Origin: Alphaproteobacteria bacterium
GTDB taxonomy: Bacteria; Pseudomonadota; Alphaproteobacteria; MPNO01; UBA830
NCBI GenBank assembly: GCA_965243135.1
Contig: OZ251539.1
Location: forward strand, 2,720,001-2,784,000
DNA length: 64,000 nucleotides
Direction of reading: 5' to 3'
Of the stretch, positions 12,052-50,951 are shown in pieces (within the stretch, counting starts at the first letter, position 1; each line of letters begins with the position of its first letter). The translations under genes were made by a program, and so were the position numbers. The notes below the pieces were generated by a model. That model did not search any database. It saw only the letters and a list, made by a program, of their open reading frames with translations, and was not told the origin of the DNA.

Positions 12052-13551
12052 TCAGCGGCGCTTGTCGAAAAACGCGAAAAGTTCATCGGAGGTCAGACTG
12101 TCGGCGACATGCGCCGTCGCTTCCTGAAATCGTTCGGGGTCGACGATGCCGTCGAGCACGGATTTCAAGCGTTCTCCCGCTTCGGTGCCGAACCTTTCGG
12201 CCGCTAGCTTGGCCACGAGTTCGCGGTTCAAAGCCATGGACGCCTCGGCCCTCGCGTCGGACGCCTCGGCCCTCGCGTCGGACGCAAGTGCCCTTTCCAC
12301 GGCCGCATCGTAATGTTGAGCGAATCCGGTCATCAGTATCGATCCTTCAAGTGCAGTCTCAGGGAACCATTCTGACCCGAGCGCCGTCATTGTCAACAGA
12401 AGATGGCGCAACGGTTCGTCCACCGGCAGAAGCCTGTCAAGCTCCTCGCAGGCGCGCAACGTGTCGGCGGGGTCGCCTTGATGCAGCCGGAAATAAGCCG
12501 CCGCGGGATTGTCTTGGTACGCGGAATAGTCCATCCGTTGGACGTCGTGCACCACATACCGCGCCGGCGTTCTGTAGGGCTCGAGGAAGGCATGCTTCGG
12601 CGGAGCTATCAGCCTTTCCGCGTCGTCGGCTGCATTCCAGGCGTCGGCTCCCGTGTGGACGACGACCGGAACGGTGAACGGAACCCGGTCGTCGGCATCC
12701 AGGAGATCCTTGTGGTTCCGTCGGATGGTTCTTGTGAGTTCGATCCGGTAGGACGCCATCCGTTCCGCCATAGCGCGGTCGACAGCGGATTGGAACTCGA
12801 CGATGAAGGAAAGCGGCTCTGAGTCCTGCGGTTCGAGGACCAAGATCATATCGCTGCGGAGGGCACGGCTGAGCGAGTGGGACACGAGTTCCCCGTCGAT
12901 GCGTCGAATGGCCGCGTCTTCCGGCACCAGATCGGCCGGCAGGACAGTCCGCAGCAGGCCCCGCGCCATTACGGGATACCCGAAAACGAACCGGGCTATC
13001 GCGTCGTGCGGATAACGTCCCGGCCTGCCCAGCATCCGCAGCGGGGTCCGGTCTCGCGGGTCCTTGAGAGCAGGGTTCCCGCCGCATCCGACCAAAGCGA
13101 CGAACGCGGCGTAGTTCTCGTTGCGGGCGGCGTAGTGAAGCGGCGAGAACCCCCGATTGTCCGCGGCGTCGAGACCGGCGCCCGCCGCGGCCAGAGCCTC
13201 GATGGCGGCCGCATTCCCGTCGCGGGCAGCGTAGTGAAGCGCCGTTCGCCCGTTCCGGTCCCCGGCGTCGAGGCCGGCGCCCGCCGCGGCCAGAGCCTCG
13301 ATGGCGGCCGCGTTCCCGTAGCGAGCGGCGTAGTGAAGCGCCGTTCGCCCGTTCCGGTCCCCGGCGTCGAGGCCGGCGCCCGCCGCGGCCAAGGAAGCGA
13401 TGTGCGCCGCGCCCTTTTTCGGGACCCTGGCGGCGTAATGGAGAAGGGTCCGGCCCTTTCGGTCTTTCGGGTTGTTGTGCCGACGGAACAATTCGACGAT
13501 GAATTCTGGGGACCCCGTCCTGACGGCGGCGGCGAGCTGTCGTTTCTTCAT
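12052..13551 (-). CDS. Ankyrin-repeat + Rpn/YhgA-family PD-(D/E)XK nuclease fusion
   Basis: Four ankyrin-type 'GRTALHYAA' repeats (two are near-exact 99-bp copies), then Rpn motifs 'HDAIARFVF', 'LRSDMIL', 'IVEFQSAVDRAMAERM', 'VPVVVHTGADAW'. Confidence 0.88.
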   Translation of the reverse strand: MKKRQLAAAVRTGSPEFIVELFRRHNNPKDRKGRTLLHYAARVPKKGAAHIASLAAAGAGLDAGDRNGRTALHYAARYGNAAAIEALAAAGAGLDAGDRNGRTALHYAARDGNAAAIEALAAAGAGLDAADNRGFSPLHYAARNENYAAFVALVGCGGNPALKDPRDRTPLRMLGRPGRYPHDAIARFVFGYPVMARGLLRTVLPADLVPEDAAIRRIDGELVSHSLSRALRSDMILVLEPQDSEPLSFIVEFQSAVDRAMAERMASYRIELTRTIRRNHKDLLDADDRVPFTVPVVVHTGADAWNAADDAERLIAPPKHAFLEPYRTPARYVVHDVQRMDYSAYQDNPAAAYFRLHQGDPADTLRACEELDRLLPVDEPLRHLLLTMTALGSEWFPETALEGSILMTGFAQHYDAAVERALASDARAEASDARAEASMALNRELVAKLAAERFGTEAGERLKSVLDGIVDPERFQEATAHVADSLTSDELFAFFDKRR

Positions 13552-14054
13552 TCTTCCGATCCCTGCTTGCGACTGTCGTGCGCTCAATGTTTCCGAACTC
13601 CGTTTCCGCCCCTGAGAAGCGGACCGCGGACCGCCGCCGAGGCGCGGCCCGCAGGCTTCGTCGCAGCCGAACGCCGGACATCGTCCGTCCGGCAAGGCTG
13701 CGGCTGCGTTCGCCTTAATGCCATGAAACGGCGGAACCGTCAAGGGGGAAATTCGCCGACGAAGCATCGAGGGTTCGGCGGCGCCGGAAGACGCGTTCCG
13801 GCATTCCCGGCGGTTCCGACGACGACGGATTCTTTCGAAGCGCGCTGGCGTCCCGCGAAAATCCCGCGTTCCCGCCGTTCGGGTCGTCTCCGCTCGCCCT
13901 TCGGAGACGCTTGCCTGGACGCCGCGCAGCCGGCCTGAACCGGAAAGATCGTCCGGCGCCCTGACGCCGCGACCGCGTTCCGCAGGCTTGACAGCCGTTT
14001 CCAGGGGGCGTAAACGTCGGGCCGACGAGGGCCCAATTTTTCGAGATCCGCAAG

Positions 14055-20194: not shown

Positions 20195-21321
20195 CGCAGG
20201 TTTCCCGCGTTCGGGAGGGCGGCCTCGATCGCGCGCCGGACGGCCTCCGGGTCGGCCTGGGGGGCGACGAAGGCGTCGCCTACGGCACGCGCCAGGACGA
20301 AGGCGATCCGCCCGTCCCGGACTTTCTTGTCCCGGCTCATGCGCCGGATGAGCGCATCGGGGTCGCAGCGGCGGCCCGCCGGCAGGGCGACGGGCAATCC
20401 GACCGTCTCGAAATGCCGGCGGACGCGGGCCACTTCGGCGTACGCGCACAGGCCGAGCGCCGCCGAGAGCTCGAAAGCCATGACCATGCCGACGGCGACC
20501 GCCTCGCCGTGGAGCATCCGGTACCCGGATTCCGCTTCGATGGCGTGGCCGAAGGTATGGCCGAAGTTCAGGAGCGTTCGCGCGCCCGCTTCGCGTTCGT
20601 CCCTTCCGACGACGTCCGCCTTCACGGCGCAGCTGGCGCGGACGGCATGGCGGCGCGCCGGGCCGTTCTCGGCGACGACCTGGGCGCCGTTGCGTTCGAG
20701 CCAGGCGAAGAATCCCGGATCGCGGATCAGGCCGTATTTGACCACTTCGGCGTAGCCGGCGAGGAGGTGCGGTCGCGGCAGCGTGTCGAGCATCGCCGTG
20801 TCCGCGAGGACGAGCCTCGGTTGGTGGAACGCGCCCAGGAGATTCTTGCCGTGGCGCGTATTCACGCCGGTCTTGCCGCCTACCGAACTGTCGACCTGCG
20901 ACAGCAGGGTCGTTGGAATCTGGACGAAGTTCAGGCCGCGCAGGATCATGCTGGCGGCGAAACCGGCGATGTCGCCGACGACGCCGCCGCCGAGGGCGAT
21001 CAGGACCGAGGAGCGTTCCGGCGCGGAATCGAGCGCCGCGGTCGCGACGCGTTCCACCGTTTCCAGGCTTTTGGTCCGTTCTCCCGGAGGCAGGACTATG
21101 GAGGCCGGCCGGACTCCCGCTTCGGACAACGCCTTCCGGACGCTTTCGAGATGCAGTCCGGCGACCGTTTCGTCGGTGACGATCCAGCACGGGCGCGATC
21201 CGGCGAGGTCCCTGACGCGGGCGGCGCCGCTGCCGCCGGGCGCGGCCACGCCGTCGCCGATGACGATTTCGTAGGACCGTTTCCCGAGTTCGACCCGGAG
21301 ACTCTCTTCCTTCCGCTTCAT
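20191..21321 (-). CDS. aroB: 3-dehydroquinate synthase
   Basis: GGGVVGD, PTTLLSQVDSSVGGKTG, LNFGHTFGHAIE, LHGEAV. Confidence 0.97.
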   Translation of the reverse strand: MKRKEESLRVELGKRSYEIVIGDGVAAPGGSGAARVRDLAGSRPCWIVTDETVAGLHLESVRKALSEAGVRPASIVLPPGERTKSLETVERVATAALDSAPERSSVLIALGGGVVGDIAGFAASMILRGLNFVQIPTTLLSQVDSSVGGKTGVNTRHGKNLLGAFHQPRLVLADTAMLDTLPRPHLLAGYAEVVKYGLIRDPGFFAWLERNGAQVVAENGPARRHAVRASCAVKADVVGRDEREAGARTLLNFGHTFGHAIEAESGYRMLHGEAVAVGMVMAFELSAALGLCAYAEVARVRRHFETVGLPVALPAGRRCDPDALIRRMSRDKKVRDGRIAFVLARAVGDAFVAPQADPEAVRRAIEAALPNAGNLR

Positions 21322-21869
21322 GCCGGCTGCGGTCCTTCGAAACAGCGCTGCAGCGCGCGCAGCACGGCGCGGGCGGCGGCGTCGGCCGATCGGTCGCCGG
21401 AGGCGACCGTCAGATCCGCCTCGGCATAGAACGGGTAGCGTTCCGCGATCAGGCGTTCCATGACTTGGCGCCGGTCCCCCATGTTCAGCAGCGGCCGGTC
21501 GCTGCGTCGCGAAACGCGTTCGAGGAGGACTTCGAGATCGGCCTTCAGCCACACGGAAACGCCGTTCAGGCGGACGTTGCGCCGGGTCTCCGCGTCCGCG
21601 AACGCGCCGCCGCCGGTCGCGATCACGGCGTTCCGCCGCTTCATCAGCCGGGCGATCACCCGCCGCTCGCCGTCGCGAAACGCCGGTTCGCCGTATTTCG
21701 CGAAGATGTCCTCGATCGAGCAATTGGCCGCCGCTTCTATCTCCCTGTCGGCATCGATGAATTCGCGGTCGAGCAGGGCCGCCAGCCGCTGTCCGACGGT
21801 CGTCTTTCCCGCTCCCATCAGACCGACCAGAACGATGGGCTTTTCAGCATACTGCAGGGCGACTGTCAT
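21318..21869 (-). CDS. aroK: Shikimate kinase
   Basis: GLMGAGKTT, GEPAFRDGE, ATGGG, RPLL. Confidence 0.97.
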   Translation of the reverse strand: MTVALQYAEKPIVLVGLMGAGKTTVGQRLAALLDREFIDADREIEAAANCSIEDIFAKYGEPAFRDGERRVIARLMKRRNAVIATGGGAFADAETRRNVRLNGVSVWLKADLEVLLERVSRRSDRPLLNMGDRRQVMERLIAERYPFYAEADLTVASGDRSADAAARAVLRALQRCFEGPQPA

Positions 21870-21989
21870 TGGAAGATTCGCTTAAGCCCAAGGCGTTCTC
21901 GCCGTCGGAATTTCCGGGAGGCGGCCGCCTTGCGCGGGGCCGGCCACCGGGGTTCGCCCGGTCGCGCTTCCACCTCCGCAGCCGGATCT

Positions 21990-23125
21990 CGGGCCACGCG
22001 CCCCGGGACGACCCGCGCACGGAAGGAAAAAGCGTTGTCCTCGGGCGGATCCTCCACCTTCAGCCGGCGCGCGTCAACGGGAAAATAGCGCTGCCGCAGC
22101 TGGAAGTCCGGCATATTTCGGAAAGATCCCTTCCGAGCGCGGCCGGCCAAAACGGCTCGCCGTCGCGAACGACGATCGGCAACATTGCCGCCGCCGCCAT
22201 CTTCGCGCCGCCGCGGACGAACTTCCCGTACGACGCCGACGTGCAGGAAGCGCGGGATCGTCTCCCGGTCGACGCTCGACTGGAACTCCAGCGGCGGAAG
22301 CGCTTCGCCCTGGCCGTCTTCCGCGCGCAGGCGGACGCGCCCTGGAAGGGATGCGCGACCAGATGGCGGACGCCCCGTCTTCCGCGCGCAGGCGGACGCG
22401 CCGCTGGCCGACAAGCGCACTTTTCCGGCGATGGACCGTCTTCCGCGCGCAGGCGGACGTGCCGTCTAAAACGTGTTGAGAGAAAATTCCCTCAACCCGT
22501 CTTCCGCGCGCAGGCGGACGTGCCCCCGGCATCCGATCCGCCCGGTGGGCCGGACCGCCGTCTTCCGCGCGCAGGCGGACGTGCCCCCGATCGGCGGCCG
22601 CGCATGGCATGTGATCACCCGTCTTCCGCGCGCAGGCGGACGTGCCCTGTTCGCGGTCGAGGCCATCGCCCAGCACGAGCCGTCTTCCGCGCGCAGGCGG
22701 ACGTGCCTGAATCCCATACTTTTTGCAAGATTGTACGCAACCGTCTTCCGCGCGCAGGCGGACGCGCCGGCGCCTCGCGCAATGTCCGCGTGGGACACGC
22801 GCCGTCTTCCGCGCGCAGGCGGACGTGCCTGAATCCCATACTTTTTGCAAGATTGTACGCAACCGTCTTCCGCGCGCAGGCGGACGCGCCAGCCCCGGTC
22901 CCGTCGGCATTGCGCGGATCATCCCGTCTTCCGCGCGCAGGCGGACGCGCCAGACCATGTCGGCGCGGCTCTGCCGCAGGTCGTTGTCGACGAACCGCGG
23001 CGGGGGATCGCGGCAGGGAAGTCCGGTTCTCCGCCGAAGTCCGCCCGAAGGAAGCCGTGCGCCAGGTCGGCCACGGACCGTGGGTTGTCGAAAAGCGTTT
23101 GCATGGCGTCGTCGCAGATGTCGCG
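21990..23125 (-). pseudogene. Frameshifted Rpn/YhgA-family nuclease gene interrupted by the CRISPR array
   Basis: Minus-strand pieces in Rpn order: 'DDAMQTLFDNPRSVADLAHGFL', 'FVDNDLRQSRADMVWRVRL' | array | 'LEFQSSVDR', 'LPIVVRDGEPFW', 'FQLRQRYFPVD'. Outer limits approximate. Confidence 0.85.
22314..22951. CRISPR. Orphan type I-E-like CRISPR array: 11 repeats CCGTCTTCCGCGCGCAGGCGGACG(C/T)GCC, 10 spacers of 33 bp
   Basis: Repeats start at 22314, 22375, 22436, 22497, 22558, 22619, 22680, 22741, 22802, 22863 and 22924 (exact 61-bp period); TCCGC/GCGGA hairpin; spacers unrelated except 7 = 9; no cas genes in window. Confidence 0.95.
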
Positions 23126-23279
23126 AACCAGACCGGCTCCCGTCCGGCGAGCCTCGCGGCGGCTTCTTTCTTCATGCGTAAAGCGAAGGCAGCGCGGACG
23201 CGCCCCAAAATCGCCATAATCTGCGACGATGGTGCGGCCGTCGTCAAGCGCGGCGGACCGCGCGAATTGGGAGCGTCGG

Positions 23280-23420
23280 ATGAAAACGTTGCACATTGCC
23301 GTCTTGGCGGGCGCCTTGCTGGTTCTGGGAGGAGGAGCTGCGTTGCTTGCCGTTTGGGACATCCCCGCCCCATCCGCCGAGGTCGAAAGAATCATTCCGA
23401 ATGACCGCTTTCCTCGCTGA
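23280..23420 (+). CDS. Small membrane hypothetical protein
   Basis: One hydrophobic helix plus 'WDIPAP...VERIIPNDRF'; recalled as common upstream of xerD in Alphaproteobacteria. Confidence 0.7.
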   Translation: MKTLHIAVLAGALLVLGGGAALLAVWDIPAPSAEVERIIPNDRFPR

Positions 23421-25143
23421 TCGCCGGCCGCGGATGATCGCCGGCCTGCTGGCCGCGGCGATTTCCTTCGGAGCTGCGGCGCAGCCCGTCGAACTTCGGC
23501 GGCCGACTCCCGACGAGGCCCGTCCCGCGCCGCCGACGCCTCCGCCGGTCGAATCGTCCGGCGAGGAAGCCGGAGCTTCCCGGCCCGCGGACGAGATCGT
23601 TTTCGATACGCTGGACCCGATCGATCCCGATACCTTCGGACTGATCGGCGCGAATCAGGACGGTTTCGGCGTCGACGTCTGGCAGGGAGCGGACTGGCAA
23701 ACCGTCAGCGGGCTGATGTCGCAAATCCCGGCGCTCACGACATCGGCCACGATGCGGGCGCTCGCCTCCCGGCTGCTCCTGTCCCGAGCTTTCGTGCCCG
23801 CGGGCAAGCCGGCGAACGCAAGTTTCGTCGGGCTGCGCGTCGAACGGCTTCTGGACATGGCCATGATCGAGGAGGCGCTCGCCCTGTTGAAGGCGGTTCC
23901 GGTCCAGCGGCGCGATGCGACGTTCTCGAAGGTCGAAGTCGAGACGCTCTTCTTCGACAACAGGAATGCGGAGGCATGCGCGCGGGTCGAGGAGGTCGCC
24001 GGAAGATTCGCCGACGTGTACTGGAATCAGGCGCAGGCCTTCTGCGTCGCTCTCGGAGGCGATCAGGCGCGCACCGCGCTCATCGCCGAACTGCTCCGCG
24101 AACGGGAGGAAGAAATAGAGCCGGCGTTCTTCACCGCGCTGGAATCGCTCGCCGGGTTGGAGGTCTCCGAGGTCGAGTCGCTCGACGCGCCCGGCGGACT
24201 GCTTCTCTCCATGATGCGCGCCGCCGGCCTGAAGCTGCCCGGGCCGCTGGCGAAGAGCGCCGATCCGGCGATTCTCCGTTGGGTCGCGAGGTCGCCGAAC
24301 GCCGATCTCGAGGTTCGCCTCGCGGCGGCCGAAAAAGCGCTGGGCGCACATGTTCTCGCGCCCGCCGACGTAACGCGGGCGTATCGGGGCATACGATTTA
24401 CCGACGAGGAACTGGCCAATCCGGTCTCGCGAGCCGAAGCGGACTGGGGACCGCGAGGCCGGGCGCTTCTTATGCGTGCGGCGTCAGCGCAGAGTTCTCC
24501 GCTCGCCAAGGCCGAACTGTTGAGGCGCGCATGGCAGATCGGGCGCGAGCGAGGCGGATACGGCGTGATGGCACGGATGGGCGCTTCGGAGGTTTCGGGC
24601 ATAACGCCGTCATCGGAACTGACGTGGTTCGCGGAGGACGCGGCTCGCGCCTTGTTCGGCGCGGGCCGCATCGCCGAGGCAATGGCCTGGTACGGCGCCG
24701 TGGCGGGACCGAGCGCAGCCCTGGACGAGGCGCGGAACGCGGAGGCCGGCCTGTGGCCGCTCGCGGTGCTGGCCGACAGCGAGACGCCCTTCGATCCCGA
24801 CCGGTTGACGCAGTGGTACGCCGACCTGCGGCAATCGGCGCCCGACGAAGCCCGCGGCAGGGCTCTGACCTTGTTCGGACTGCTGGAGGCCGCCGGCCGG
24901 AACGTTCCGTGGCGGACGCTGCTGGACGCGCCGACGGTCGGAAGCGGGACGGATCGGGCATGGGCGCGCAGCCTCGCGGCCGCGGCGGAGGAGGGCCGGA
25001 TCGGCGAGACCGTTCTGCTCTCGGCCGTCTTGGCCGGCGCCGGCGCGGGCCCGCCGGAGCTTGCGACCGCGCTCCGACGCGTCGGGCTCGAGGAGGAAGG
25101 ACGGCGCCTGGCACTGGAAATCGCCGTCGCGGCCGGGTTGTGA
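23401..25143 (+). CDS. Exported hypothetical protein upstream of xerD
   Basis: Signal-peptide-like N-terminus, long coding-like ORF, stop overlaps the xerD GTG. Confidence 0.8.
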   Translation: MTAFLADRRPRMIAGLLAAAISFGAAAQPVELRRPTPDEARPAPPTPPPVESSGEEAGASRPADEIVFDTLDPIDPDTFGLIGANQDGFGVDVWQGADWQTVSGLMSQIPALTTSATMRALASRLLLSRAFVPAGKPANASFVGLRVERLLDMAMIEEALALLKAVPVQRRDATFSKVEVETLFFDNRNAEACARVEEVAGRFADVYWNQAQAFCVALGGDQARTALIAELLREREEEIEPAFFTALESLAGLEVSEVESLDAPGGLLLSMMRAAGLKLPGPLAKSADPAILRWVARSPNADLEVRLAAAEKALGAHVLAPADVTRAYRGIRFTDEELANPVSRAEADWGPRGRALLMRAASAQSSPLAKAELLRRAWQIGRERGGYGVMARMGASEVSGITPSSELTWFAEDAARALFGAGRIAEAMAWYGAVAGPSAALDEARNAEAGLWPLAVLADSETPFDPDRLTQWYADLRQSAPDEARGRALTLFGLLEAAGRNVPWRTLLDAPTVGSGTDRAWARSLAAAAEEGRIGETVLLSAVLAGAGAGPPELATALRRVGLEEEGRRLALEIAVAAGL

Positions 25144-41175: not shown

Positions 41176-41963
41176 CCCGCATATTTCGGTGCGCCGTGGA
41201 AAGGCGCTCTCTTTCGGTGGGCGCGACGACCTTGTCGATCTGACCGTCTTCAAGGACGTCGCACTGCTTTTTTCGCTCGCCCCTTCAAGTTTGAAGCGCA
41301 ACGCGCGTGGTGGCTGACCGACCGTTTTCATGTTGCGGAGAGGTCAGGCGGGTGAGTTCAAAAACGGAGGCCAACGCCCGCCGTTTCCGGTTTCGCTTTC
41401 GCGAGCCGCTTCGGTTGACGGCTTCGAACGAGCCATGGTTTTCGGCGGCGGAAGTCCGCTCGCTCGACCGGACGACGCTCTCGTTCGACGGAACCGCTGC
41501 CTGACGTTCAGGCGTCTCGCCGCTTGCGGCGCATGTCGTCGCGCGCCTCCGGCGCCGAACCAGCTGCAGGTGCGAGGCCTGCCGCGACAATCGTCGTCGC
41601 GCGGCTTTCCCTGGCGAGGGCGCTTGCCGTCGCGTTGCGTCGGCCCTGGTTTCCTCGGCGAGGGCGTCGACCTTGCCGTCGAGGCTCGCGAAGCCGGCGT
41701 CGTTGTCGACGCGCGTCGCCTTTGGCGGCGGCGTCTTCCGTCGGCGTTCGCCCGCGGCATCCAGGCCGCGCGTTGAGCGCGTCGAACGCGCTCGCCTCGG
41801 CGGAGCAGGATTTCCGCGGAACGACAGCTTCGCTCGCCTCCGCGCTTTTCCCCGCCGGCGGCCCGTGCCGCCGCGGAAACTGCCGGCTGCTTGCCGCGCC
41901 AGGGGACGCGCCTGCCGCCGCCGACTTCTTGACGGCTCCGGCGCGGCGGCCTACCCTCTTCGA

Positions 41964-45477: not shown

Positions 45478-47234
45478 CCCGCATATCTCACCAGAGCGAA
45501 TCAGGGGGCTGGATTCGGGTTACGGGCGCGGTTTTCGGAACGACCGACGAGCCGGAGAAGCGGGGCGCAGTCGGCAAGCAAGGATTTTTCGTGAACGAAA
45601 CGCGAACTTGTGCGGTTGTGGATGATTCCGACGCCGTGGAATCCAGTACCCGAGCATACCTGTCCCGTGGCCGACGTTCCGGCTTTCAAAAAAGGGCTGT
45701 CGAGGCCGCGAGCGGCGTCAGGTCGGGGCCGGCGGCGCAGCCGCCTGCAGGTTCGCCAGGACCCGGGCGAATAGATCCTTCCAGGGCCAGACCGACGAAA
45801 ACGAGAGCAGAACCCTCCGAACCGAGATGCGGATGCAGACGGCGACCTTGAGGAGCTTCGTCCGAATCGTTCCGGCCTGCGCCCTGTCCTCCCCGGTGCC
45901 GGCCAGGCCGACCCTCCGAATCGCCGCCACCAGGTGGCTGGCGAACGTCGCAAAGTCGAGGCGCAACTGGTTCGCCCGCATGGTCGCGGTCGAAGTCCGA
46001 TCGGCGAACAGGTCGAGTTGCTGCTCCTTGATGCGGTTCTCCATTTCGCCGCGCGCGCAGTACAGATCCTCGTAGAGAGCCTGCGCCCCCGCCCGCTTGC
46101 AGCCCAGCGAAGTCACGACGAAGCGGGCGTTGAGGCCGCGAGGACCCGGCAGCCACTCCGCCTTCGCGACCACCCGCCGCGTCCGGCTCCACGACCTTCG
46201 GGTCCGGTACCGGAAGTCGCAGAACCGCCGCGACGACTCGCCGGTCGAGAGGCAACGGCGGCGCGACTTGCGCAACTGCCTGGCGATGCGCTCCGCCAGA
46301 CGGGGGTTGCGGGACAGGCCGAACAGGTAGTCGACCCCGTTGTCTTCGCACCACGTCATGAGTTCGTCGCGGCAAAAGCCGCCGTCGCCGCGAACGACGA
46401 TCCCGGTCTCCGGCCAGCGCTTGCGAATGCGCTCCACAATCCGTGCCAACTCCTCCGCCGTGCCCGCCGCCGGGTCGACGTTCGCAGGCCGCAACCGCGA
46501 ACACAAAATCAGGTCGTCCCACACGATGTAGAGCGGAAGGTAGCAGTATGAGTCGTAGTAGCCGTGGAAGTGACGCCCCTCCTGGTTGCCGTGCACCAGG
46601 TCGTCGGTGGAGTCGACGTCCAGCCAGATCTCTTTCGGCGGCGACGGACAGGCGTCGAGGGACAAGTCGATCTTGAGATCGTCCAGCGCTCCCGGAATGG
46701 CCGTGATCTTCTTGTACCGGTGCGTCTCGGCCTCGCCGGGAACGCCCAACTCGAACCGGTTCAAGGTGCTCGAACCGGCCAACGGAATGCCGCGGTCGCG
46801 CTCCCGAACCCGCTCCTCCCCGGTCAGGTCGGTGCACCCGACGGCCAGCGCCAGCACGCTGTCGGCCCGAAGCTGGTCGTGATCGTTGACGTCCTCGTAA
46901 CCCTGTAAAAGGCCGAACAACCGCTGCGAAACCAGCCGCTGCACCGGGTGCTCGAGGCGTTCCTGGCATCGGTGGTCCTCGAAGCAAGCCGCCATTCGCG
47001 GCGTCAGGTTGAGCAGCGCGTCGGCCTGGCGCAACAGCGTCGCGCCGCCGTCGGTGCTGAGGCGGCCGCCTTCGAAATCGCCGACCACCTTGCGGCTTCC
47101 GAGGCCTTGAAACTCAAGCTGCAACGGTTTACAGTCTGTGGGGTTTCCTTTCGCAGGTCGTGTAGTGGGTTGATTCTTCTATATGTATTGCGAATCGGGG
47201 GCCCCATGCAACCAGTAGTGGTGAGATATCCGGG
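45478..47234 (-). mobile_element. Complete IS1380-family element with TTAG target duplication
   Basis: Inverted ends cccgcatatctcacca / tggtgagatatccggg; TTAG at 45474-45477 and 47235-47238. Confidence 0.92.
45718..47124 (-). CDS. IS1380-family transposase
   Basis: FEGGRLSTDGG, GYEDVND, LDVDSTDD..HGNQEG, RGDGGF, YCARGEMENRIKE. Confidence 0.95.
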   Translation of the reverse strand: MQLEFQGLGSRKVVGDFEGGRLSTDGGATLLRQADALLNLTPRMAACFEDHRCQERLEHPVQRLVSQRLFGLLQGYEDVNDHDQLRADSVLALAVGCTDLTGEERVRERDRGIPLAGSSTLNRFELGVPGEAETHRYKKITAIPGALDDLKIDLSLDACPSPPKEIWLDVDSTDDLVHGNQEGRHFHGYYDSYCYLPLYIVWDDLILCSRLRPANVDPAAGTAEELARIVERIRKRWPETGIVVRGDGGFCRDELMTWCEDNGVDYLFGLSRNPRLAERIARQLRKSRRRCLSTGESSRRFCDFRYRTRRSWSRTRRVVAKAEWLPGPRGLNARFVVTSLGCKRAGAQALYEDLYCARGEMENRIKEQQLDLFADRTSTATMRANQLRLDFATFASHLVAAIRRVGLAGTGEDRAQAGTIRTKLLKVAVCIRISVRRVLLSFSSVWPWKDLFARVLANLQAAAPPAPT

Positions 47235-50180: not shown

Positions 50181-50951
50181 CCGAAGAGGGTAGGCCGCCG
50201 CGCCGGAGCCGTCAAGAAGTCGGCGGCGGCAGGCGCGTCCCCTGGCGCGGCAAGCAGCCGGCAGTTTCCGCGGCGGCACGGCGGGGAAAAGCGCGGAGGC
50301 GAGCGAAGCTGTCGCTCCGCGGAAATCCTGCTCCGCCGAGGCGAGCGCGTTCGACGCGCTCAACGCGCGGCCTGGAGGCCGCGGGCGAACGCCGACGGAA
50401 GACGCCGCCGCCAAAGGCGACGCGCGTCGACAACGACGTCAACGCCGGATTCGCGAGCCTCGACGGCAAGGTCGACGCCCTCGCCGCGGAAACCGGGGCC
50501 GACGCAACGCGACGGCAAGCGCCCTCGCCAGGGAAAGCCGCGCGCCGACGATTGCCGCGGCAGGCCTCGCACCTGCAGCTGGTTCGGCGCCGGAGGCGCG
50601 CGACGACATGCGCCGCAAGCGGCGAGACGCCTGAACGTCAGGCAGCGGTTCCGTCGAACGAGAGCGTCGTCCGGTCGAGCGAGCGGACTTCCGCCGCCGA
50701 AAACCATAGCTCGTTCGAAGCCATCAACCGAAGCGGCTCGCGAAACCGGAAACGGTGGCGGCGGGCGTTGGCCTCCGTTTTTGAACTCGCCCGCCTGACC
50801 TCTCCGCCACATGAAAACGGTCGGTCAGCCACCACGCGCGTTGCGCTTCAAACTTGAAGGGGCGAAGAGCTTTTACTCGGAGAATAAATCCGCCGTGCGC
50901 GCACTCGACGCTCTCCTTGACGGTTCCGGCATGGCGGCCTACCCTCTTCGG

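Follow-up and report, generated by a model that had tools for sequence, protein, structure and literature searches.

A leaderless CRISPR array whose repeat is a segment of the Rpn nuclease pseudogene that holds it, very probably a natural neo-CRISPR array

A 64,000-nt stretch of an alphaproteobacterial genome (hereafter the window; G000:C1:2720001-2784000 of a single 6.10-Mb contig with a GC content of 0.65) carries a CRISPR array at positions 22314-22951. The repeat of this array is a duplicated piece of the gene sequence that existed at the site beforehand, and that gene is assigned by sequence similarity to the Rpn (YhgA-like, Pfam Transposase_31) family of nucleases. The array is very probably a natural neo-CRISPR array, that is, the outcome of off-target integration of spacers by the Cas1-Cas2 proteins of the type I-E system resident in the same genome. 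Positions up to 64,000 refer below to the window and larger ones to the genome (G000).

The array consists of 11 repeats of 28 nt, starting at 22314, 22375 and so on up to 22924 (R1, 22314-22341; R11, 22924-22951), and of ten 33-nt spacers, the period being exactly 61 in all ten units. The number, period and coordinates of the repeats reported in an earlier note on this DNA hold, and so do its ten spacer units, of which only nine are unique: S7 is identical to S9, the rest being mutually unrelated. On the plus strand the repeat reads CCGTCTTCCGCGCGCAGGCGGACGYGCC and varies at a single position, occupied by C in R1, R2, R8, R10 and R11 and by T in R3-R7 and R9. Near-identical repeats of fixed length separated by spacers of fixed length are thus present, as in CRISPR arrays at large. 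Adjacent cas genes and an AT-rich leader with a promoter, also typical of such arrays, are both lacking, the earlier note having remarked on the missing cas genes and AT-rich leader. The left flank has a GC content of 0.69 and the right flank one of 0.71, as against 0.42-0.50 for the leader of the canonical I-E array of this genome; no promoter-like (sigma-70-like) site was found beside the array on either strand; and no Cas1 is encoded in the window, the three cas1 loci of the genome being located at 5.26-5.31 Mb and the array at 2.742 Mb. The sense strand of the array is ambiguous. Its repeat is predicted to form a hairpin of -10.3 kcal/mol, compared with -13.1 kcal/mol for the canonical I-E repeat. 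The core of the repeat has zero further copies in the genome, and its exact 22-nt form gave no match in the GTDB species genomes or in the JGI metagenome contigs. Searches of Rfam (E-value threshold, max 10) returned chance-level matches only, for this array and equally for the positive control, which was the canonical array.

The array is not an artefact of assembly, since pieces of it identical to the window occur in contigs of the other runs X2, X4 and X7. Both flanks of the host pseudogene are also present, at about 98% identity, in run X5. The contigs of these four runs end at repeats, and alternative states of the array are not readable from them. Parts of the region 21300-23800 were likewise recovered from runs X5, X6, X8 and X9, which are labelled as sponge metagenome.

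Read on the minus strand, the right flank of the array ends in ...FVDNDLRQSRADMVW, the repeat stays in frame as RVRLRAEDG, and the left flank resumes with QGEALPPLEFQSSVDRE, just as the earlier note had read it. The 5' part of the host gene (22952-23187, minus strand), in which homology to the closest paralogue starts at about 23187, comprises some 60 nt from upstream, the start codon, now CTG, and the N-terminus up to the catalytic Asp (...SRADMVW), with a frameshift near 22990-23000. The 3' part (21955-22313, minus strand) begins with QGEALPPLEFQSSVDRE, which contains the E-x-Q of the nuclease core, and carries several frame-breaking indels. Homology stops at about codon 198 of 334 (position 21955), and about the last 40% of the gene is missing. 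Relative to the paralogue, the host copy has exchanged its ATG for CTG, has accumulated at least five frame-breaking indels, is truncated, and has its core split by the array; no intact open reading frame (ORF) with a D...E-x-Q core is left. The earlier description of the array as an interruption of an Rpn gene is therefore correct as to its location within the gene and incomplete as to the gene itself, which has decayed at its start, along its frame and at its end as well.

About 15 loci related to the host gene are found in the genome. The closest paralogue is an intact ORF of 334 codons (4504478-4505482) that matches Pfam PF04754 (Transposase_31) with 71.1 bits against a cut-off of 21, its NCBIfam RpnA matches being sub-threshold; the short host fragments, searched alone, gave no Pfam match. 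When the array was reduced to one repeat by coordinates, the collapsed locus aligned with this paralogue over 519 of 660 nt (79%), gapless throughout the 60 nt that surround the repeat, so that collapsing does restore the sequence of an Rpn core, as the earlier note had proposed. Membership of the host gene in the Rpn family is deduced from this 79% nucleotide identity, the paralogue itself being above the Pfam cut-off. The same paralogue carries a single, in-frame copy of the 28-mer that is identical to the repeat at 24/28 positions; in the other Rpn paralogues the equivalent 28-mer is 11-21/28 identical. An intact metagenomic homologue, P0004, which has 332 aa and shares 82% identity with that paralogue, reads SRADMVWRVRLRAEDGEVDVFLLLEFQSSVDRE and has the exact repeat peptide, WRVRLRAEDG, at the exact position of the array. 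A single in-frame copy in intact genes, which the earlier note had expected of a gene-derived repeat, is what the paralogue displays, with P0004 displaying the exact peptide. According to the alignment ranges of NCBIfam, the array falls between the residues that match D63 and E82/Q84 of RpnA, for which Kingston et al. 2017 (PMC5350276) report that mutation abolishes RpnA activity. Elsewhere in the window (12052-13767, minus strand), a 571-aa ORF combines N-terminal ankyrin repeats with a Transposase_31 (Rpn) domain, and its equivalent 28-mer is 11/28 identical to the repeat.

The genome contains three CRISPR-Cas loci inside about 55 kb (5262441-5316400), and each of the three cas1 loci at 5.26-5.31 Mb is located beside a large array. 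These cas-linked arrays comprise 115 repeats at period 66, 48 at period 75-80 and 78 at period 61, the last being of type I-E and the only one of the three to share the period of the orphan array. The I-E operon is complete (cas3, cse1, cse2, cas7, cas5, cas6e, cas1e with 301 bits, and cas2e), with Cas1e and Cas2e intact and above curated cut-offs, and lies 2.56 Mb away from the orphan array. In the canonical I-E array (5302437-5307163), which consists of 78 repeats measuring 28 nt, 75 out of 77 spacers are 33 nt long, so that the geometry of 28 plus 33 nt is common to both arrays. Their repeats are different. The orphan repeat is identical to the canonical one at 16/28 positions on the plus strand and at 14/28 on the minus strand, a level of likeness (at least 16) reached by about 9,900 28-mers of the genome, and does not belong to the I-E repeat family of the resident system. 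The comparison with the cas locus proposed in the earlier note thus yields the same geometry with another repeat, and the occurrence of the identical repeat in a canonical cas-linked array, which that note had named as evidence of a translocated array, was found neither in the genome nor in the databases searched. A further locus (4812992-4813202), far from the cas operon and beside a short ORF, has four truly I-E-like repeats, the last of them degenerate, and one spacer that matches the genome itself at 31/32 positions; this is perhaps what is left of another I-E locus.

The spacers of the Rpn array derive to a large extent from the host chromosome. Four of the nine unique spacers match the genome itself, three perfectly and one at 32/33 positions. 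S2 (22403-22435) matches the rho gene at 4658567-4658599 (33/33), S4 (22525-22557) matches 4716795-4716827 (33/33), S5 (22586-22618) matches 4740655-4740687 (33/33) in an ORF resembling the metallo-beta-lactamase fold, and S6 (22647-22679) matches 858968-859000 (32/33). Read in plus orientation, as are all these spacers, the protospacers of S2 and S4 have GGAA directly 5', followed by G (AAG) and C (AAC), respectively; S5 has GGAAAT followed by C, with GGAA 2 nt away; and S6 is without an AA flank. S2 also matches many relatives at 88-94% because it lies in rho. The protospacers of S2, S4 and S5 lie within 82 kb of each other (4.658-4.741 Mb) and on both strands, two protospacers of other mini-arrays described below lie at 4.91-4.94 Mb, and the GC-skew minimum, a putative origin, is at about 5.155 Mb. 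Such clustering could possibly reflect a capture hot spot or priming.

The other spacers gave no source in the collections searched. S7 (22708-22740, plus strand; GC 0.36), identical to S9 at 22830-22862, has no match in its own genome, in phages, in plasmids, in IMG/VR or in the JGI metagenomes and is presumably foreign. S3 gave no match in IMG/VR, and the whole array gave none in phages. A plasmid match of the array (68%, weak) is not regarded as a protospacer. Foreign protospacers were therefore recovered neither from phages and plasmids, searched with the whole array, nor from IMG/VR (S7, S3) or the JGI metagenomes (S7). Two spacers with no source in these collections have a GC content of 0.36-0.39.

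In the canonical I-E array self-matching spacers are far rarer, with 2/77 as against 4/9 in the Rpn array (Fisher's exact P = 0.0008). The two canonical spacers, starting at 5304541 and 5304663, match their own chromosome at 33/33 and 28/28 positions, and both protospacers are bordered by GAA followed by G, on what we take, by the rules for the E. coli I-E system, to be the non-functional side. This is the pattern expected if only harmless self spacers survive. Because the canonical array has no match among phages and plasmids, the protospacer adjacent motif (PAM) of this I-E system rests on these two self hits, and the comparison of PAMs is one of four self protospacers of the Rpn array with just two canonical ones. 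The scarcity of canonical self spacers and the side of their motif suggest that interference is active on canonical CRISPR RNAs (crRNAs) and not on those of the orphan array. Taken together, the two spacer sets would fit an integrase that takes up much self DNA, a canonical array purged of such spacers unless they are harmless, and an orphan array that tolerates them. Since the tolerated spacers include one against the essential rho gene, transcripts of the orphan array are probably not used for interference.

The genome was scanned for 28-mers (at least 26/28 identical) that are repeated at constant spacing around dissimilar sequence. Apart from the three cas-linked arrays, the scan recovered 12 CRISPR-like loci of period 61; every other period between 45 and 90, multiples of 3 excepted, yielded 0-3 loci. 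They consist of the Rpn array, the I-E-like locus at 4812992 and ten mini-arrays with private repeats (at 385672, 973349, 1912721, 1922849, 2208563, 2510624, 2545732, 2992257, 4477870 and 5621020), each of which, with boundaries read from 61-nt rows, combines a 28-nt repeat of its own with one to three spacers of 33 nt, most of these self-derived. Those at 1912721 and 1922849 are copies within a duplication. A central CGCGCG or GCGCGC occurs in 8 of the 10 distinct repeats (that of the Rpn array and nine distinct private ones), as compared with 2.3% of random 28-mers. When the Rpn array is included, self matches, some of them just partial, are found for 13 of 23 unique spacers. By their coordinates, none of the sister mini-arrays lies within an Rpn locus. 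The longest open frames running through them after collapse say little about coding context at the 65% GC of this genome. With its ten spacers, the Rpn array is the largest of the neo-arrays, the others having one to three.

Paralogous empty sites in the same genome exist for the Rpn array, in the form of the Rpn paralogues, and for three of the sister loci. A copy of a multi-copy element, which we take to be an insertion sequence by a transposase motif, aligns at 2793986-2794115 without gaps across the collapsed 2992257 locus (129/130 identical), and the collapsed 973349 locus has a gapless, 91.5% identical counterpart at 3074430-3074559. The arrays at 973349 and 1912721 are located in copies of one repeat element, in which the same 28-mer was hit and different spacers are present. 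Three segments of the window (41337-41628, 50514-50805 and 45835-46275) are uninserted copies of two multi-copy elements, the spacer-bearing counterparts of which are at 973349/1912721 and at 2992257.

The locus was also compared among related bacteria. Of 40 relative genomes searched, 38 matched the genes flanking the array, all at about 30% divergence, and the Rpn fragment located between aroK and the next gene is absent from the 40, so that neither an orthologous empty site nor an orthologous intermediate was recovered from them. P0063, a 96-aa protein of a relative, tracks the minus strand of the window up to 23189 and then diverges; because this point coincides with the onset of homology to the Rpn paralogue (about 23187), the relative may lack the Rpn fragment. 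A second protein, P0002 (182 aa, from a contig of 1960 nt), was retrieved by searching with the spurious ORF that runs through the array. It opens with MVR (MVW in the window) and the repeat peptide; a spacer peptide of 11 residues comes next, after which the repeat returns in the next frame and the left flank runs to the aroK border. P0002 is about 88% identical to the window in the matching frame, and the divergence of its contig is estimated at about 5%. Its spacer is none of the ten in the window, and the spacer peptide has an exact six-frame match at 2865888-2865920, with GGAA and then G beside it. If this reading is right, one and the same site would hold one spacer in one lineage and ten in another, none of them shared, pointing to independent hits or to turnover.

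These observations can be accommodated in a simple sequence of events. The resident I-E Cas1-Cas2 would once have put a 33-nt spacer into a non-CRISPR site, namely a 28-bp stretch in the gene of an Rpn (YhgA-like, PD-(D/E)XK) nuclease, between the catalytic Asp and the E-x-Q. Staggered integration followed by gap repair would have duplicated the 28 bp, giving a repeat-spacer-repeat unit in which every new copy could serve as a further target, up to the present 11 repeats and ten spacers. The integrase was probably drawn by the alternating CGCGCG at the centre of the site and by its short inverted arms, suitably spaced from both cut sites. Core and arms resemble the middle of the true I-E repeat, and the site was probably recognised by them rather than by overall likeness to that repeat, which is a poor explanation of site choice because about 9,900 genomic 28-mers match the true repeat as well. 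Since the array is without a leader, its growth was probably not strictly polar and the orientation of its spacers would not have been fixed. To account for the order of repeat variants (c c t t t t t c t c c), it would be simplest to suppose that C changed to T once, in an internal repeat, and that further insertions then took place at internal repeats; strictly polar growth, whichever end it started from, would be less parsimonious. For the duplicate S7/S9, either additional recombination or repeated capture of one fragment would have to be assumed. Self spacers, including that against essential rho, would be tolerable only if transcripts of the array are not used for interference. That Cas1e-Cas2e were the agent, that the events followed this order and that the array is silent in interference are three things that we infer. 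The earlier proposal of a de novo array built by Cas1-Cas2 acting in trans is supported in particular by the self spacers with AA-N flanks, by about ten arrays with private repeats and by the empty sites.

Several points weigh against this account or fit it imperfectly. The proto-repeat is only 16/28 or 14/28 like the true repeat, and the choice of site is thus explained in part. The CGCGCG motif was spotted post hoc, and AA occurs at -2/-1 in just 6 of 11 good self protospacers. In E. coli, I-E integration relies on a leader and on IHF, and growth to ten spacers without an AT-rich leader or a promoter-like site is surprising. The c c t t t t t c t c c pattern and the S7/S9 duplicate fit strict polar growth poorly, and S2, S4 and S5 share one orientation, with the spacer of P0002 in the opposite one relative to the repeat. 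A close relative with an intact gene at the array locus was not found among the 40 relatives, which are about 30% diverged and lack the whole fragment. The one-spacer state of P0002 was read from a protein sequence, and the integration activity of Cas1e-Cas2e is presumed from their genes.

Other explanations of the array were considered. An orphan array with a repeat family of its own might have moved into the Rpn gene by recombination or transposition, in which case the in-frame fit would be a coincidence or a matter of microhomology. Transfer, along with loss of cas genes, is a common explanation of isolated arrays according to PMC13142298, and the Rpn fragment is itself an insertion relative to the 40 relatives searched. 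Such a move is nevertheless extremely unlikely, given that the full 28 nt are homologous to the gene, 24/28 identical to the paralogue and gapless at both junctions, and that the exact repeat peptide is present in the intact homologue P0004. The rest of the genome lacks the repeat, and the GTDB species genomes and JGI metagenome contigs searched lack its exact 22-nt core, so that the array cannot be taken for a translocated canonical one; about ten sister loci, each with a different, locally derived repeat, and the empty paralogous sites argue in the same direction. The earlier note had raised the possibility that Rpn genes recur as a source or host of arrays. A special role of this kind, for example through breaks made by the nuclease or through a coding hairpin preferred as proto-repeat, is not supported by the present genome. 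The largest neo-array of the genome does sit in an Rpn gene, and a relative (P0002) has a different spacer at the same Rpn site. Yet the other 14 or so Rpn loci are without an array, their equivalent 28-mers being 11-24/28 identical to the repeat, the other nine to ten neo-arrays lie outside all Rpn loci, and a literature search, made in a limited paper collection, found no paper linking Rpn/YhgA with CRISPR arrays, which makes a special role of this family very unlikely.

A different question is whether the neo-array became a working locus, in which transcripts cut by Cas6e and loaded onto Cascade drove primed acquisition and hence the growth to ten spacers. The hairpin predicted for the repeat (-10.3 kcal/mol, against -13.1 kcal/mol for the canonical one), the three self protospacers within 82 kb, as priming would give, and the ten spacers as opposed to one to three in other neo-arrays speak for this possibility. 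Under interference, however, the perfect match to rho with its AAG flank should be lethal, and the canonical array retains only 2/77 self spacers, both with GAA-G on the presumed non-functional side. No promoter-like site was found, and the three clustered protospacers lie on both strands. A working locus of this kind is considered unlikely. A broader proposal, speculative and rather unlikely, is that the lineage may be giving birth to new CRISPR loci, the I-E integrase seeding arrays at any CGCGCG-centred 28-mer, and that the Rpn array is by now self-propagating, being transcribed from the promoter region of the old gene, cut by Cas6e and engaged in priming acquisition. If true, self-propagation would explain both the ten spacers and the 82-kb cluster of protospacers, and coding sequence would, by a natural route, have given rise to a new repeat family and to a new functional array.

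The explanation preferred here, integration at off-target sites by the I-E Cas1-Cas2 of the same genome, bears on the origin of CRISPR arrays and of their repeats, an old open question. It offers an in vivo view of the target requirements of a native I-E integrase, which would be a central CGCGCG core and not the whole repeat. The orphan loci would also constitute an unselected record of captured DNA, mostly self and including an essential gene, and their contrast with the purged canonical array bears on the cost of autoimmunity. The scan for private repeats at the period of the resident system is simple and can be applied to all genomes. It also carries a warning for annotation, as arrays of this type are neither decayed canonical arrays nor coding repeats.

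Among known systems, the closest parallel is that of neo-CRISPR arrays in E. coli, which work by Nivala, Shipman and Church from 2018 (Nat Microbiol 3:310) reportedly obtained through off-target integration by over-produced Cas1-Cas2. Common to both are a spacer inserted at a non-CRISPR site, duplication of that site as a repeat, the possibility of further spacers and the 61-nt unit of type I-E. Unlike those arrays, which depended on over-expression in the laboratory, the Rpn array occurs in a natural genome with native cas genes, has ten spacers and about ten further sites, has its progenitor preserved in paralogues, and has mostly self spacers where sources were found. A preprint citing that work calls the evidence for natural neo-CRISPR arrays 'circumstantial', and it refers to two other species; in the same paper collection, our literature search came upon no natural genome described as having many neo-arrays. 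Off-target acquisition is one of three proposed origins of isolated arrays (Shmakov 2020, CRISPR J 3:535, as cited in PMC13142298). The Rpn array resembles these isolated arrays in being far from the cas operon of a cas-bearing genome, and it differs from isolated arrays in general in that its origin is readable, the repeat being a gene segment unrelated to the cas-linked arrays. With the canonical I-E array it shares 28-nt repeats, 33-nt spacers, a central alternating purine-pyrimidine core with inverted arms, and AA-N flanks, and it is set apart from that array by the AT-richer leader, the adjacent cas operon and the 2/77 self spacers of the latter, the two repeats being 16/28 identical. As regards Rpn nucleases, the host gene falls in the family and the array lies between the equivalents of D63 and E82/Q84 of RpnA as given in PMC5350276; the host copy, unlike them, is truncated and frameshifted, and the family has no demonstrable part in the making of the array. 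Relative to the neo-CRISPR arrays already described, what is new is the natural occurrence, a readable progenitor and the highest number of spacers among its sister loci, together with about ten independent events in one genome that come with empty-site controls, a target motif and a record of self spacers.

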